Positions 6,246 to 29,689 of a stretch of DNA of 64,000 nt are shown here, piece by piece (the stretch's first letter is position 1; each line of letters begins with the position of its first letter). Location: the NCBI RefSeq assembly GCF_003019035.1, contig NZ_CP027447.1; one strand, written 5' to 3'. The notes beneath the pieces are model-generated. The model made no database searches, was not told the origin of the DNA, and saw only the letters and a list, made by a program, of their open reading frames with translations. The position numbers and the translations under genes were made by a program. The stretch is from Escherichia coli (GTDB lineage: Bacteria > Pseudomonadota > Gammaproteobacteria > Enterobacterales > Enterobacteriaceae).

Positions 6246-6695
6246 ATGTTCTCACCGCAGTCACGCTTGCGTCATGCAGTTGCAGATACGTTCGCGATGG
6301 TTGTTTACTGTTCTGTCGTGAACATGTGTATTGAAGTTTTCCTCTCCGGAATGAGCTTCGAACAGTCTTTTTATTCCAGATTGGTAGCGATTCCGGTGAA
6401 CATCTTAATTGCATGGCCATACGGTATGTACCGCGATCTGTTTATGCGCGCAGCACGCAAAGTTAGCCCGTCGGGCTGGATAAAAAATCTGGCGGATATC
6501 ATGGCTTATGTGACGTTCCAGTCACCGGTGTATGTGGCGATCTTGTTAGTGGTGGGCGCAGACTGGCATCAGATTATGGCGGCAGTCAGTTCAAACATCG
6601 TTGTTTCGATGTTGATGGGGGCGGTTTATGGCTACTTCCTCGATTATTGCCGCCGACTGTTTAAAGTCAGCCGTTACCAGCAGGTAAAAGCCTGA
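6246..6695 (+). CDS. alaE: L-alanine exporter
   Basis: 149-aa membrane protein ORF; position between stpA and ygaC. Confidence 0.85.
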
Positions 6696-6731
6696 CCCTT
6701 CTTTTCGCGACTGGCATCGCCAGTCGCGTCT

Positions 6732-7076
6732 TTAACTGGCTTCGCCAAATAAACCATTCAAATAACGTTCAAGCGCAACACGCGAACTAAAGCCATGTGG
6801 GATACCGTAATGCTCATGACGTTCACCCGCTAAATAGAGCGGAAATTGCTGGTAATGATCGCAAGTTTTAATATCGGAAGCGGGTTCAGCCAGTGTTGAA
6901 CTACGTTCTTTTAATGTTGGATGAATCACCAGGGCGGTACGTCCCATTCGCGCTTCGCGATTAACATAGACATAATTTTCCCCACGGCGGTAACCATACG
7001 CTTTCTGGGTTACCACATCGACAGTAAAACCGACTTTTTCAAGTACGCGCGCCACCTCGTCTGGTCGTAAATACAT
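6732..7076 (-). CDS. ygaC: DUF2002-family protein
   Basis: 114-aa ORF in conserved position. Confidence 0.8.
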
Positions 7077-7227
7077 ATTTGATCCTCGTTATTATCAACC
7101 GCGGGCCTACCTTACCTGATTGCGCATTCACAACGCTTTCAGAAAAGTCCATAAAGCCGCGATGAACCTCAGTTAAGAAAATTATGGTCTACACTGAAAA
7201 TTACATCGAATTCTAATGGGGGATCAT

Positions 7228-7557
7228 ATGTTTAACCGACCGAACCGCAACGACGTTGATGATGGCGTGCAGGATATCCAGAATGATGTCAATCAATTAG
7301 CTGACAGTCTCGAATCTGTATTGAAGTCCTGGGGCAGCGACGCCAAAGGGGAAGCCGAAGCCGCTCGTAGTAAAGCGCAGGCTCTACTGAAAGAAACCAG
7401 GGCGCGGATGCATGGTCGTACTCGCGTCCAGCAAGCCGCGCGCGATGCCGTTGGCTGCGCGGATTCTTTTGTTCGTGAAAGACCCTGGTGTAGTGTGGGT
7501 ACAGCGGCAGCGGTGGGTATTTTTATCGGCGCACTGTTAAGCATGCGCAAATCGTAG
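7228..7557 (+). CDS. ygaM: ElaB/YgaM-family membrane-anchored protein (DUF883)
   Basis: ORF 7216..7557; start at MFNRPNRND (109 aa); C-terminal TM helix. Confidence 0.85.
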   Translation: MFNRPNRNDVDDGVQDIQNDVNQLADSLESVLKSWGSDAKGEAEAARSKAQALLKETRARMHGRTRVQQAARDAVGCADSFVRERPWCSVGTAAAVGIFIGALLSMRKS

Positions 7558-7587
7558 TGCAAAAATGATAATAAATACGCGTCTTTG

Positions 7588-7616
7588 ACCCCGAAGCCTG
7601 GCTTCGGGGTTTTTTA
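7588..7616. terminator. bidirectional intrinsic terminator between ygaM and the MocR-type gene
   Basis: ACCCCGAAGC-CTGG-CTTCGGGGT stem-loop followed by TTTTTT. Confidence 0.75.
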
Positions 7617-8948
7617 GCTTAAGGCTTTACGTAATTGTTGTGCTACCTGTCGCGCCATACCTTCGTTAACGATATTAGTAAACGAAAGCAGTAATCCACC
7701 TTCCCCACTTGAACGGATACGCCAGTCGCTAAGTGCCTGCACCGCAAGGCCTGCAGCATTGGCTTTACGCGCATGGGCAATATCATCGCCTATCATTCTG
7801 ATCACCATCTGGATACCACCTTTCTGCGGCACAACCTGAAATCCTTGCTGCGTCAACGCTTGCTCAATCCATTGCCGACGTTGAGCATAATGCTGACGCA
7901 TTTTCTTCAGATGCCGCCAGAAATGCCCCTCGCGAAGAAAGTCTGCCAGTGTGTTCTGCCATAGAACAGGTACCGCACATGGAGCCAGTGACGCCTGGTG
8001 GCGGAATTGTGCAATTTGCTTCACCGGCACCACCAGCCACGCACAGCGCAATGCAGGAAATAGCGCTTTGCTGAATGTTCCGGCATAAATTACCCGCTGC
8101 GGTGCGTCGAGACTTTTCAACGCCGGTAACGGCTTACCGTGATAGCGAAACTCACTGTCATAATCATCTTCAATAATCCATGCCTGACTACGATCTGCCC
8201 ATTCCAGTATCTGATGCCTGCGCGCTAAAGAGAGCGCCACACCCAGCGGACTTTGGTGTGCTGGTGTTATCAGGGCAAAACGCGCATCAGGATAATTTTG
8301 TATTCCGCTTGTGATATCCAGTCCATTGTCATCAACCGGCACAGGCAAAATTTCCACATCATGGCGAGTGACAATCGGGCGAATCAGTGGAAAGCCGGGA
8401 TCTTCTATCCACATCCCGTTTCCCGGTTTCGCCAGCGCGTGCAGAATTAAAGCTATTGAGGCCGCATAACCGTGAGTGATAAAGACCTGCTCTGGCTGAC
8501 AATCAATCCCACGTGAAACGCGTAAGTAATCAACTATTGCCTCGCGCAACGCCACCTCACCGCAAACATCGCCTAACGCCAAATCAAAGCGCGTCTGGGT
8601 ACGAAGGCGACGCCCCATCACCCGCGCCCACAGCTCTCGCGGAAAGAGATCGAGTGCGGGTAATCCCATTTGAAATGGCAACGGTTGCTGACTTTCACCG
8701 GCAAAAGCTACAACTTGTACAGTAGATTGTTGCGGATATATCCGCTCACTGACAAATGTGCCAGCCTGTCCCCGCCTGATCAGCCATCCTTGCGCCACCA
8801 GCTCAGCATACGCATTTTCGACAGTGGAACGAGACACCCCCAGCTCCTGCGACCAGGTACGACTTGAAGGCAGCCTTGCGCCGGGTTTCAGTTCCCCTTG
8901 CTCAATAGCCGTTTTTAACTGACGGGCGATATCCTGATAGCGCGGCAT
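7614..8948 (-). CDS. MocR/GabR-type regulator (GntR HTH fused to PLP aminotransferase-like domain)
   Basis: 444-aa ORF; N-terminal GntR-type HTH (MPRYQDIARQLKTAIEQGELKPGARLPSSRTWSQELGVSRSTVENAY), long aminotransferase-fold C-terminus. Confidence 0.75.
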   Translation of the reverse strand: MPRYQDIARQLKTAIEQGELKPGARLPSSRTWSQELGVSRSTVENAYAELVAQGWLIRRGQAGTFVSERIYPQQSTVQVVAFAGESQQPLPFQMGLPALDLFPRELWARVMGRRLRTQTRFDLALGDVCGEVALREAIVDYLRVSRGIDCQPEQVFITHGYAASIALILHALAKPGNGMWIEDPGFPLIRPIVTRHDVEILPVPVDDNGLDITSGIQNYPDARFALITPAHQSPLGVALSLARRHQILEWADRSQAWIIEDDYDSEFRYHGKPLPALKSLDAPQRVIYAGTFSKALFPALRCAWLVVPVKQIAQFRHQASLAPCAVPVLWQNTLADFLREGHFWRHLKKMRQHYAQRRQWIEQALTQQGFQVVPQKGGIQMVIRMIGDDIAHARKANAAGLAVQALSDWRIRSSGEGGLLLSFTNIVNEGMARQVAQQLRKALS

Positions 8949-17087: not shown

Positions 17088-17168
17088 CGGGCGGATAAGG
17101 CGTTTTTGCCTCATCCGCCGCTCTGTACACAATGCCTGATGCGACGCTGGCGCGTCTTATCATACCTA
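17088..17168. repeat. REP/BIME element downstream of proX
   Basis: CGGGCGGATAAGGCG...CATCCGCC and GCCTGATGCGACGCTGGCGCGTCTTATCA palindromic units. Confidence 0.6.
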
Positions 17169-23373: not shown

Positions 23374-24081
23374 ATGAATACCCAACGGAAATACGGGAGA
23401 ACCTGGCATTATCCTTTCTCCCCTGGCACCACCAGCGATGACCGCATTAACGCCGATTACTGGCAGGATTTACAGGCCATCACGCAATTGGTGCACACAG
23501 AAAAACTCGACGGCGAAAATAACTGCCTTAACCGCTACGGCGTGTTTGCCCGCTCCCATGCCGCGCCTACGCAGTCGGCATGGACCTATAAAATTCGCCA
23601 ACGCTGGCAACTGCTGAAAAACGATCTCGGCGACCTGGAGTTGTTTGGTGAAAATCTTTATGCCGTCCATTCGATTGAATATCGCGCCATGGAGCAGGAT
23701 TTTTATCTGTTTGCCGTTCGCTGCCAGGATATGTGGCTGAGCTGGGAAGAGGTGCAGTTTTACGCCGCTCTGTTTGATTTCCCCTGCGTTCCCGAAATCT
23801 CCGGCCCGCAGCCGGGGAATGATGAAAAAAGCTGGCAACGTGATTTTTTGGCGCTGACCAATGCGCGCGGCGCGTTCGATCCCTGGGATACGCAAACTGG
23901 GCAACCCTGTACGCTGGAAGGCATTGTCAGCCGGAATCGTGACGCGTTTTCCGTCGCTGACTTTTCGCATAACGTCTTCAAGTATGTGCGCAAAAATCAT
24001 GTCAAAACCACCGTGCACTGGAAACGACACTGGCAACGGGCGCGGATGGCCCATGAGTTCGCTTATGGAGAACAGTCATGA
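23374..24081 (+). CDS. ATP-dependent RNA ligase-like nucleotidyltransferase (235 aa)
   Basis: Covalent nucleotidyltransferase motifs visible: motif I KLDGEN (Lys at about nt 23503), motif III-like ELFGENLYA, motif IV-like LEGIVSR, motif V-like FKYVRKNH. Confidence 0.55.
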
Positions 24082-25190
24082 TTTGGCAGCTTACCGACGA
24101 CAAACGCTGGTCGACGCTACGCCAGCGTTTCAGTTGGGTTGAGGAGATGCATCACACGCCACAAGACCCGGAGCATCATGGTGAAGGTGACGTCGGCGTG
24201 CATACCGAAATGGTGCTTAACGCCCTCGTTACTCAGCCAGAATTCCAGCAACTCCCCGCTCAACAGCAGGAAGTTTTATGGGCGGCGGCGTTATTGCATG
24301 ATGTTGAAAAGCGCAGCACTACCGTGCAGGAAAACGGACGTATTCAGTCGCCTGGCCATGCTCGTCGGGGCGAACTGACGGCCCGACAAATTTTATGGCG
24401 CGATATCCCAACGCCGTTCGTGCTACGCGAGCAAATTGTTGCGCTGGTGCGTCTGCATGGGCTACCGCTATGGTTACTGGAACGTCCGGAACCGGAGCGT
24501 TTGCTGCTTACAGCTGCAATGCGCATCGACACGCGTTTGCTCGCTTTGCTTGCTCGTGCCGATCTGCTTGGTCGCCAAAGCCCGGATCAGCAATCAATGC
24601 TGGAACGCATAGATCTGTTCGAGCTGTTTTGCCATGAGCAACAATGCTGGGGAAAAGCGCGCCCGTTCGTGTCTGATTCCGCACGCTGGCACTACCTGAC
24701 TCATGAGCAAAGTTCTACTGATTTTGTTCCCTGGGGGGCTGAACCTTTTGAGGTTATTTTGCTGTGTGGCTTACCGGGTATGGGCAAAGATCGCTATATC
24801 AGTGAACAGTGCCAGGGAATTGACGTTATCAGCCTTGATGATATGCGGCGGCGAATCAATGCTAGCCCGGATGACAAAACCGCTACCGGGCGTATTGTGC
24901 AACAGGCAAAAGAAGAGGCGCGCGTTTTTTTACGCCAGAAAAAGCCGTTCATCTGGAATGCAACGAACATTACCCGCCAGCTGCGTAGCCAGCTCATCAA
25001 TCTGTTTACGGCTTACGGCGCACGAGTAAAAATCGTTTATCTGGAAGTGCCATGGGCGCAATGGAAGCAGCAAAATGCCAGACGCAAGTATGCAGTTCCT
25101 GAAGCGGTCGTGATGCGGATGGCCTCAAGGCTGGAAGTTCCTCAACCTGATGAAGCACATAGCGTGGAGTATCGGGTGATTGAAAGGTAA
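24078..25190 (+). CDS. HD-domain phosphohydrolase fused to P-loop kinase (370 aa)
   Basis: N-terminal HD motifs ([17 protein letters not shown]); C-terminal Walker A-like GLPGMGKD; start overlaps upstream stop (ATGA), implying translational coupling with the ligase-like gene. Confidence 0.55.
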
Positions 25191-25822: not shown

Positions 25823-25895
25823 GAAAGACGCGCATTTGTTATCATCATCCCTGAATTCAGAGATGAAATTTTGGCCACTCACGAGTGGCCTTTTT
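25823..25895 (+). ncRNA. micA: Hfq-dependent small RNA MicA (SraD)
   Basis: Sequence GAAAGACGCGCATTTGTTATCATCATCCCTGAATTCAGAGATGAAATTTTGGCCACTCACGAGTGGCCTTTTT matches MicA as I recall it; terminator hairpin plus U-tract; luxS-gshA intergenic position. Confidence 0.85.
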
Positions 25896-28524: not shown

Positions 28525-28663
28525 GGTCTTCTCGCAAGTCGAAAAATATGACGCTACTTTAGCGTAATTGCTTGATTTTGTCGCTGACGGCGAAGGAGAA
28601 GAAAATTCAGGAAATGGATAAAGTAGTTATTTAGAAATGAGATATTTTTGAAGGAAATTTTTT

Positions 28664-28689
28664 GGAGAAGATGGTGCATCCGGGAGGAT
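28664..28689 (-). repeat. tRNA-Arg 3'-end fragment (26-bp direct repeat of argQ 3' end plus flank)
   Basis: GGAGAAGATGGTGCATCCGGGAGGAT occurs identically at 28664-28689 and at 28775-28800 (the true argQ 3' end); the first copy then diverges. Confidence 0.6.
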
Positions 28690-28782
28690 GACTCACTGGC
28701 GTTCGCCCTTCGGGCCGTTGCTGGCGTGCGGTTAATATCGCTACCTCTTCGATACTTTCATTGCTGAAGGTTACGGAGAAGA

Positions 28783-28859
28783 TGGTGCATCCGGGAGGAT
28801 TCGAACCTCCGACCGCTCGGTTCGTAGCCGAGTACTCTATCCAGCTGAGCTACGGATGC
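28783..28859 (-). tRNA. argQ: tRNA-Arg (anticodon ACG)
   Basis: Reverse complement reads GCATCCGTAGCTCAGCTGGATAGAGTACTCGGCTACGAACCGAGCGGTCGGAGGTTCGAATCCTCCCGGATGCACCA. Confidence 0.95.
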
Positions 28860-28921
28860 ATCGGGAAATTTATTTTACTGCTGATATTGATACCGCTACT
28901 AAAGCCATATCAAGTAAGAGA

Positions 28922-28998
28922 TGGTGCATCCGGGAGGATTCGAACCTCCGACCGCTCGGTTCGTAGCCGAGTACTCTATCCAGCTGAGCTACGGATGC
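28922..28998 (-). tRNA. argZ: tRNA-Arg (ACG), identical copy
   Basis: Identical 77-nt sequence; symbol assigned by position in the array. Confidence 0.9.
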
Positions 28999-29060
28999 AT
29001 CGGGAAATTTATTTTACTGCTGATATTTATACCGCTACTAAAGCCATATCAAGTAAGAGA

Positions 29061-29137
29061 TGGTGCATCCGGGAGGATTCGAACCTCCGACCGCTCGGTT
29101 CGTAGCCGAGTACTCTATCCAGCTGAGCTACGGATGC
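29061..29137 (-). tRNA. argY: tRNA-Arg (ACG), identical copy
   Basis: Identical 77-nt sequence; symbol assigned by position. Confidence 0.9.
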
Positions 29138-29201
29138 ATCGGGAAACTTACTTTACTGCAGATTTTTTGATACCGCCACTAAAGCCGTATCAAGTAAGAG
29201 A

Positions 29202-29278
29202 TGGTGCATCCGGGAGGATTCGAACCTCCGACCGCTCGGTTCGTAGCCGAGTACTCTATCCAGCTGAGCTACGGATGC
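29202..29278 (-). tRNA. argV: tRNA-Arg (ACG), identical copy
   Basis: Identical 77-nt sequence; symbol assigned by position. Confidence 0.9.
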
Positions 29279-29281
29279 AAA

Positions 29282-29374
29282 TGGCGGTGAGGCGGGGATT
29301 CGAACCCCGGATGCAGCTTTTGACCGCATACTCCCTTAGCAGGGGAGCGCCTTCAGCCTCTCGGCCACCTCACC
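29282..29374 (-). tRNA. serV: tRNA-Ser (anticodon GCU), long variable arm
   Basis: Reverse complement reads GGTGAGGTGGCCGAGAGGCTGAAGGCGCTCCCCTGCTAAGGGAGTATGCGGTCAAAAGCTGCATCCGGGGTTCGAATCCCCGCCTCACCGCCA. Confidence 0.95.
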
Positions 29375-29689
29375 ACACGCCTCTTACGAGTGCTTCGAAG
29401 AACTTGTTTATCGCTCATCGTCGCTGCGTGGCGCACATATTACTTTCTGAGACTTATAAGTCAAACAATTTTTCCCACACTTTTATCGTTTGCACACTTC
29501 ACGCTCAATTAGTCTGTAAAAACGTCAAAAAGAGTGTTTTATCAACAGAAAAACGGAGGTCTGACAGATAGCAGTAATGCAAAAAAATGGAGACTTAAGT
29601 TGAATGAACGGGAATAAAGCGAAAAGACAATGGAGTGAAAGAGAAATTTTGAGGGTGCGTCTCACCGATAAAGATGAGACGCGGAAAGA

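Follow-up and report, generated by a model that had tools for sequence, protein, structure and literature searches.

The 64,000-nucleotide stretch of Escherichia coli DNA analysed here (hereafter the window) was scanned over its whole length with ARAGORN and found to contain five tRNA genes, all on the minus strand: a single tRNA-Ser(GCT) gene and, downstream of it, four tRNA-Arg(ACG) genes, whose names were taken from the K-12 order serV-argV-argY-argZ-argQ (Table 1). Each Arg gene scored 67.1 bits against the Rfam tRNA family (RF00005; gathering score 29), had its anticodon (acg) placed by ARAGORN at gene position 35 and was identical in 77/77 nt to K-12 argV, argY, argZ and argQ, encoded CCA included (…GCACCA). 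The original prediction of four identical 77-nt tRNA-Arg(ACG) copies was found to be exact in sequence and coordinates, both by ARAGORN and by sequence comparison. Left out of it were the minus-strand orientation, the tRNA-Ser(GCT) gene and a partial fifth tRNA copy that forms part of a tRNA-linked repeat (TLR). serV lies upstream in the same operon, at a distance of 3 nt from argV, and its counterpart is annotated as tRNA-Ser in both SCU-301 and K-12.

Table 1. Features of the locus in transcription order (positions in the window).
Feature	Position	Strand	Description	Evidence
Promoter-like site	29437..29464	-	TTGACT, 16-nt spacer, TAATAT, then G+C-rich discriminator GTGCGCCACGC	consensus scan
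serV	29282..29374	-	tRNA-Ser(GCT), 93 nt, first gene of the operon	ARAGORN; Rfam tRNA, 56.8 bits
argV	29202..29278	-	tRNA-Arg(ACG), copy 1	ARAGORN, Rfam
Spacer 1	29138..29201	-	64 nt, argV trailer and argY leader, position-specific type (…ATCAAAAAATCTGCAGTAAAGTAAG…)	
argY	29061..29137	-	tRNA-Arg(ACG), copy 2	ARAGORN, Rfam
Spacer 2	28999..29060	-	62 nt, distal type (…ATAAATATCAGCAGTAAAATAAAT…)	
argZ	28922..28998	-	tRNA-Arg(ACG), copy 3	ARAGORN, Rfam
Spacer 3	28860..28921	-	62 nt, distal type	
argQ	28783..28859	-	tRNA-Arg(ACG), copy 4, last gene of the operon	ARAGORN, Rfam
TLR	28672..28782	-	degenerate tRNA-linked repeat (RtT family), 111 nt, starting directly after the CCA of argQ	
Terminator-like hairpin	28551..28565	-	ACGCTAAAGTAGCGT, then T-rich tail	pattern scan

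A 1.5-kb query around the array matched 5425 of 5426 complete E. coli genomes, the best being SCU-301 (99.9%), with which the window is colinear over 40 kb at an identity of at least 99.99%. In the RefSeq annotation of SCU-301, and likewise in K-12, the order of genes on one strand is alaS, csrA, tRNA-Ser, four tRNA-Arg, yqaB, yqaA, gshA and luxS, so that the succession csrA, tRNA-Ser(GCT), tandem tRNA-Arg(ACG) and yqaB characteristic of serV-argVYZQ is present. K-12 MG1655 has the same flanking genes, strand, tRNA-Ser, four Arg sequences and 3-nt Ser-Arg junction. Gene identity, synteny and the anatomy of the repeats were read directly from the sequence, as were the variation within the population and across genera and the conservation of TLR structure reported below. 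We regard the locus as the chromosomal E. coli serV-argVYZQ operon, with the function and evolution proposed here as a whole, at a probability of about 0.95.

The genes and spacers form one tandem array (28780-29279; Tandem Repeats Finder period 139, 3.6 copies, 97% matches, score 933), whose repetition is far above chance. Spacers 2 and 3 are equal at 61/62 positions, and spacer 1 equals spacer 2 or 3 at 56/64 positions. The ~139-bp periodicity and the near-identical spacers noted earlier for this DNA were thus both recovered.

The degenerate tRNA-linked repeat downstream of argQ

The last 18 nt of the tRNA-Arg gene recur as ATCCTCCCGGATGCACCA at positions 28672-28689 (18/18 match), a 3'-end fragment that occurs nowhere else in the window except within the four genes themselves, and with 8 nt of trailer this copy makes up a 26-nt direct repeat (28664-28689 versus 28775-28800). 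[quoted passage not shown] The element in the window resembles TLR/RtT in lying directly 3' of a tRNA gene, in the same orientation, and in ending in 18 nt of that tRNA's 3' end. By alignment with 127 TLR copies from ~25 genera it was classed as a deleted TLR orthologue.

K-12 has three intact TLRs of 133-135 nt, after argV, argZ and argQ, whereas the window has the terminal one only, with an internal deletion of 22 nt relative to intact copies. Because intact TLRs follow argV and argZ (and argQ), the spacers of K-12 measure 198, 62 and 198 nt in transcription order, compared with 64, 62 and 62 nt in the window, and the interval between the same flank anchors amounts to 1011 and 719 bp, respectively. 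The deletion junction was found in 95 of 5426 E. coli genomes, LF82 among them, and therefore represents a lineage allele.

When the window was scanned against Rfam (gathering score and E<=1), nothing was reported for the segment downstream of argQ. The intact Arg TLRs of K-12 reached 43.8, 31.0 and 22.8 bits against RF00391 (E = 4.7e-7, 7e-4 and 0.07; gathering score 45), from which the homology of the intact copies to RtT is clear, although formal Rfam membership is not reached. The link to RtT emerged only on scanning these intact K-12 copies. The RtT core AACGuyGC…GCraCGGCCCGAAGGGCGAG…CGAGUAAUCC is present in intact Arg TLRs, which differ from the RtT of the tyrT operon (RF00391) in ending in the 3' end of tRNA-Arg rather than tRNA-Tyr; the copy in the window has lost 22 nt of the conserved core and goes undetected by RF00391. 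To the same repeat class as the Arg TLRs belong RrA, RrB and RrF, the TLRs that follow 5S rRNA in rrnA, rrnB and rrnD; these are transcribed in the stable-RNA precursor, have a structure conserved across Enterobacterales and bind Hfq and CsrA in vitro, and discrete processed TLR RNA has been shown only for these rRNA-operon members (PMC8144298). For the 19 TLRs of tRNA operons, the same source gives a predicted CsrA binding of <0.01 and no known function (PMC8144298).

Age of the array and variation between strains

Species-representative genomes were scanned for the Ser-Arg junction, yielding 120 loci in Enterobacteriaceae and Erwiniaceae, of which 75, from ~30 genera, were complete arrays. 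These contained one (5 arrays), two (7), three (13), four (47) or five (3) Arg genes, with the reservation that many arrays from outside E. coli stem from draft assemblies in which 139-bp repeats may be collapsed, so that arrays recorded with one or two copies may in fact contain more. Outside E. coli, 204 of the 212 Arg copies that were unconstrained by the search pattern, spread over more than 25 genera, are the same 77-mer as in the window. The identity of the tRNA copies can therefore be ascribed to purifying selection and carries no information on the age of their duplication, which removes the basis on which recency had originally been read from it.

The spacers were analysed by comparing, for every gene after the first, the 55 nt of leader that precede it and recording the best match within the same genome and in another genus. 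For the leader before gene 2, the median best identity was 0.75 in the same genome and 0.91 in another genus, the other genus winning in 46/58 cases; for the leaders before genes 3 and beyond, it was 0.93 in the same genome and 0.84 in another genus, the same genome winning in 56/79 cases. Escherichia, Salmonella and Citrobacter all have the type of spacer 1 at position 1. This makes the first unit an old positional orthologue across genera, and the later units are homogenised within lineages, in support of concerted evolution of the distal units, with the qualification that this nearest-neighbour test distinguishes homogenisation from orthology and does not tell gene conversion from repeated loss and re-duplication.

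Within E. coli, the csrA-side and yqaB-side flanks were adjacent in 5409 of 5425 genomes when the two unique flanks only were used as query. For a census of array length, 59 genomes were sampled evenly down the ranking, and one representative was decoded for each of the 11 length classes, some of which could hide other structures. The K-12 type, with an interval of ~1011 bp between the flanks, was found in 28 of the 59 genomes, followed by intervals of ~742 bp (8 genomes), ~1145 bp (6), ~782 bp (5), 872-878 bp (4), 881-883 bp (2) and 603 bp (2), and intervals of 462, 609, 719 (the type of the window) and 845 bp were seen in one genome each. The arrays decoded, from 13 genomes, contained 2, 3, 4 or 5 Arg genes and 0-4 TLRs. 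Two Arg genes are present in AVS0543, three in EcPF40, four in most strains and five in UPEC957C, so that the comparison of copy number among strains that had been suggested as a check on the repeat reveals polymorphism (2-5 copies) among complete E. coli genomes. TLR occupancy ranges from none in AR_0013 to all four positions in S1-ESP-03-A, with partial remnants in some strains. At junctions without a TLR, the CCA of the tRNA runs directly into the trailer that normally lies 3' of the CCA of the TLR; in AR_0013, HS and KGu016, the TLRs are absent exactly between the direct repeats, which is the product that would be expected of recombination between the two 18-26-nt repeats. In the two-copy strain (AVS0543), the sole remaining spacer is of the distal type, as would be expected if an unequal crossover had occurred between the first and a later Arg gene. 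For GPEC1054, whose flanks are not adjacent, a genomic island was considered as the cause of the separation and discarded, an insertion of ISVsa5 (IS4 family) between yqaB and the last Arg gene being found instead.

Two alternative accounts of the repeats can be weighed against these data. The array could have arisen by recent tandem duplication in the strain or its lineage, its copies being identical for lack of time to diverge. Such an origin would be compatible with the single difference among 62 positions between spacers 2 and 3 and with the variation of copy number within E. coli, owing to which single units can be young; it is nevertheless very improbable, given that four copies are the commonest state over ~30 genera, that the same 77-mer makes up nearly all copies of other species, that spacer 1 differs from the distal spacers and is shared in type and position by three genera, and that the length classes decoded as four-copy account for 54 of the 59 sampled E. 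coli genomes, K-12 included. For the complete array, a recent origin is refuted by the very test that the original prediction had specified. Of the two options in the original prediction, concerted evolution or recent duplication, the former is upheld for the distal units (56/79), and the latter is at odds with the predominance of four-copy arrays (47/75) and the orthology of the gene-2 leader. The second account concerns plus-strand open reading frames (ORFs) of 114 and 216 aa, which cross the array antisense to the tRNA genes and could encode genuine repeat proteins. They remain open for 114-216 codons and possess start codons; however, five strongly conserved tRNA genes lie on the strand opposite them, the repeats within their peptides track the 139-bp period of the DNA, a Pfam search with both matched no family, both are absent from the RefSeq annotation of K-12 and of SCU-301 (near-identical to the window), and changes in array length between strains, through copy number or gain and loss of TLRs, would shift their frame and length. 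The chance that they are genuine is negligible, and their earlier dismissal as translation artefacts agrees with all of these observations.

Conserved structure of the Arg TLRs

At least one TLR was present in 57 of the 75 complete arrays from the cross-genus survey and none in the other 18; in the 47 four-copy arrays, TLRs follow genes 1, 2, 3 and 4 in 16, 20, 30 and 36 cases, respectively. An alignment of 128 distinct Arg TLR copies, comprising the 127 copies from ~25 genera and that of the window, was generated with MAFFT and is strongly conserved over its 3' two-thirds. Hairpin regions H2-H5, named by hand from the alignment, are enclosed by a long helix, in which GCACC·A·GGGAGGAU pairs with the tRNA-derived AUCCUCCC·GG·A·UGC, leaving ACCA as a free 3' end. 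The helices were tested in the well-aligned 3' two-thirds, and a 5' hairpin (H1) was seen in single-sequence folds. Over the 128 copies, 95.6% of cells were paired, compared with 30-48% for slid partners. Changes on both sides occurred at 12 pairs (7.0 ± 1.5 in shuffles) and compensatory cells numbered 128 (14-28 with slid partners, 44.5 ± 5 in shuffles), where the shuffles ignore relatedness and the slid-partner controls, which keep it, point in the same direction. Double-sided changes cluster in H2, H3 and H5. The 3' strand of the long helix is held constant by its identity with the tRNA, and nearly all changes in the opposite (5') strand are compatible with wobble pairing. RNAalifold recovered only 12 pairs from the alignment of the 128 TLRs, since this alignment puts the variable 5' half out of register with the structure.

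In the copy of the window, both the long helix and H3 are without their 5' strands, and the conserved structure is missing; this copy folds no better than shuffled sequences (z = -1.29), as opposed to z = -5.41 and -4.77 for K-12 copies. An H5 variant (…GTGAGTC…) was considered as a marker of terminal versus internal TLRs and rejected, as both internal (13) and terminal (8) copies carry it.

The partial fifth tRNA copy could alternatively be an attL/attR scar, left in the 3' end of the last tRNA-Arg gene by a phage or island that has since decayed. A 26-nt direct repeat that includes a tRNA 3' end and flanks a segment of 85 nt is indeed what tRNA-targeting integrases leave behind. Against this origin, the 85-nt segment aligns over its length with the ~133-nt module that follows Arg genes in ~25 genera, and this module has a covarying secondary structure, is matched by Rfam RtT in its intact K-12 form (best E = 4.7e-7) and is also located between tRNA genes inside the operon, not solely at its end. 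Moreover, the segment agrees with the published definition of TLRs (PMC8144298), the locus has no integrase or foreign gene, the 85 nt between the repeats hold no ORF of interest, and no intact integrase-bearing element was seen between the two repeats, the one disrupted locus examined having an IS4-family insertion. A scar of this kind is thus very improbable, and the segment is better explained as a degenerate TLR. [quoted passage not shown] The lineage of this strain has retained the terminal TLR alone, in damaged form.

The long helix with its ACCA tail may resemble the minihelix formed by the acceptor and T arms of tRNA. A tentative extension of this likeness, which we consider possible but rather unlikely, holds that Arg TLRs are functional structured RNAs rather than inert remnants, processed from the precursor as a minihelix with a free ACCA end. 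Covariation and conservation over ~25 genera leave room for it, while the frequent complete loss of TLRs (in AR_0013, and in 18 of the 75 arrays) speaks against a needed function; in addition, a strain lacking all 22 TLRs has been reported as constructed (PMC8144298). TLR loss and the TLR-free strain argue that any function is dispensable. If Arg TLRs were functional, their RNA could compete for enzymes of the 3' and 5' ends of tRNAs (such as RNase P, RNase E or the CCA-adding enzyme) or be acted on by them, and might also serve as a decoy for factors directed at these ends; selection would underlie the patchy occurrence of TLRs among strains; and the lineage of the window would be a natural knock-out, without internal TLRs and with a terminal copy devoid of the 5' strand of the minihelix. 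Two further proposals were dismissed. A role of the TLR as a CsrA sponge, suggested by GGA motifs and the proximity of csrA, is contradicted by the published prediction of a binding probability of <0.01 for all TLRs of tRNA operons (PMC8144298), and excision of the TLR as circular DNA is contradicted by a mobilome preprint from 2024, which attributes the rttR signal to RNA/DNA heteroduplex artefacts and finds no circular junctions.

Proposed working and significance of the operon

Promoter and terminator use, the route of processing and the role of recombination in changing the array are inferred here. The candidate sigma-70-like site has 9/12 consensus matches and lies ~60 nt upstream of serV; the scan reported two sites in the region, versus 1.9 expected by chance, and none within the array, and it is from its position that this site draws its real support. 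The candidate terminator hairpin is situated 27 nt upstream of the start codon of yqaB (one site, versus 1.0 expected by chance). Both are candidates at expected positions, in a sequence that the scans found no richer in such sites than its shuffled counterpart. Transcription from a single promoter upstream of serV would yield one precursor containing tRNA-Ser(GCU), four copies of tRNA-Arg(ACG) and the trailing TLR. RNase E-type cuts would then be made within the A/U-rich spacers, the 5' ends of the tRNAs generated by RNase P and their 3' ends trimmed by exonucleases up to the encoded CCA, steps that rest on established knowledge of tRNA maturation in E. coli. The tandem tRNA genes of glyVXY, metZWV, leuQPV and tyrTV are likewise identical, are transcribed as one RNA and provide dosage for abundant codons; they differ from argVYZQ in their tRNAs and spacers.

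In the mature tRNA, A34 would be converted to inosine by TadA, after which tRNA-Arg2, the principal arginine tRNA, would read CGU, CGC and CGA. For the identical K-12 tRNA, both this editing and charging with arginine are known, and the codons CGU, CGA and CGC rely on tRNA-Arg2 after editing by TadA (PMC13170351). The same study describes serV-argVYZQ as an operon with four tRNA-Arg2 genes in tandem, reports that deletion of argYZQ lowers tRNA-Arg2 16.1-fold and phenocopies a growth defect in rich medium, and finds a 2.4-fold increase in tRNA-Arg2 upon duplication of serV-argVYZQ (PMC13170351). Elsewhere, the four ACG genes have been termed redundant (bioRxiv 10.1101/2021.07.14.452415). We propose that the four copies provide gene dosage for fast growth. 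The array is old, at the level of the family, and its tRNA copies are held identical by purifying selection; unequal homologous recombination or gene conversion between the repeats of 77-139 bp would homogenise the distal units and, by the same process, let copy number drift between 2 and 5.

The operon, its four identical genes and their dosage role are already known, and the same holds for the TLR class, including its hallmark and the fact that it has no known function. In the searchable literature, no report was found of the mosaic of copy numbers and occupied TLR positions seen here between strains, of a test of positional orthology versus homogenisation for the argVYZQ spacers or of covariation in the Arg TLR fold, some of which may be described by Rudd 1999 or older papers on tRNA operons. 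The mosaic, the spacer test and the TLR covariation refine what is already known.

A recent duplication should not be inferred from the identity of tandem tRNA genes, since the signal sits in the spacers. The locus represents a compact natural case of variation in copy number (2-5) and TLR content (0-4) within an essential stable-RNA operon. TLR/RtT, a repeat without known function since 1978, shows covarying helices over ~25 genera, and the natural TLR deletion alleles could serve to test whether it has a function.

Variant arrays in other genomes

The tRNA-Arg arrays of Trabulsiella odontotermitis (loci L065 and L129) have very short spacers of 31 nt, and both of the internal tRNA-Arg copies differ at two positions each from the canonical 77-nt tRNA-Arg(ACG) sequence. 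They represent a rare example of copies diverging in sequence inside one array. The array of Citrobacter sp. FP75 comprises five tRNA-Arg genes, the last spacer measuring 36 nt. Directly 3' of the fifth gene, the heptamer CCAAACT is repeated eight times in tandem (…CAAACTCCCAAACTCCCAAACTCC…), and this repeat stands where the tRNA-linked repeat (TLR) would be after the last tRNA gene. A typical enterobacterial array of one tRNA-Ser and four tRNA-Arg genes with four TLRs was found in a record labelled Chryseobacterium sp. 18061 (locus L108, CACSKA010000005.1). It closely resembles the array of Citrobacter sp. 18056 (locus L090), which comes from the same project, and the Chryseobacterium assembly is probably mislabelled or contaminated.

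Insertion sequences

The near-identical E. coli strain SCU-301, otherwise at least 99.99% identical to the window, carries a 1277-bp copy of the IS110-family element IS621 between srlD and gutM; the strain of the window lacks this copy and has the empty site. In E. coli GPEC1054, one of the 16 genomes with non-adjacent operon flanks, the array comprises three tRNA-Arg genes, and the gene for an IS4-like ISVsa5 transposase has inserted between yqaB and the last of them.

Other elements of the window

Positions of the features discussed
Feature	Sequence	Position	Strand	Match
Two-gene insert between emrB and luxS	window	23374-25190	+	
MicA small RNA	window	25823-25894	+	Rfam RF00078, 83.9 bits
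naRNA4	window	17089-17166	+	Rfam RF02564, 61.6 bits (gathering score 59.5); borderline
Empty IS621 site	window	39318/39319		
ISVsa5 transposase gene	GPEC1054 (locus L134)	6459-7667		

MicA lies at its usual location between luxS and gshA and is ordinary; naRNA4 is a nucleoid-associated RNA element of the REP type. The insert between emrB and luxS is present in SCU-301 and absent from GPEC1054, where emrB is directly followed by luxS. A PADLOC search with the two genes gave no matches. One of their products belongs to the RNA ligase family (PF09414 at E = 1.2e-27), and the other resembles P-loop kinases (AAA_33 at E = 1.4e-31). The insert looks like an RNA-repair cassette composed of a ligase and a kinase.
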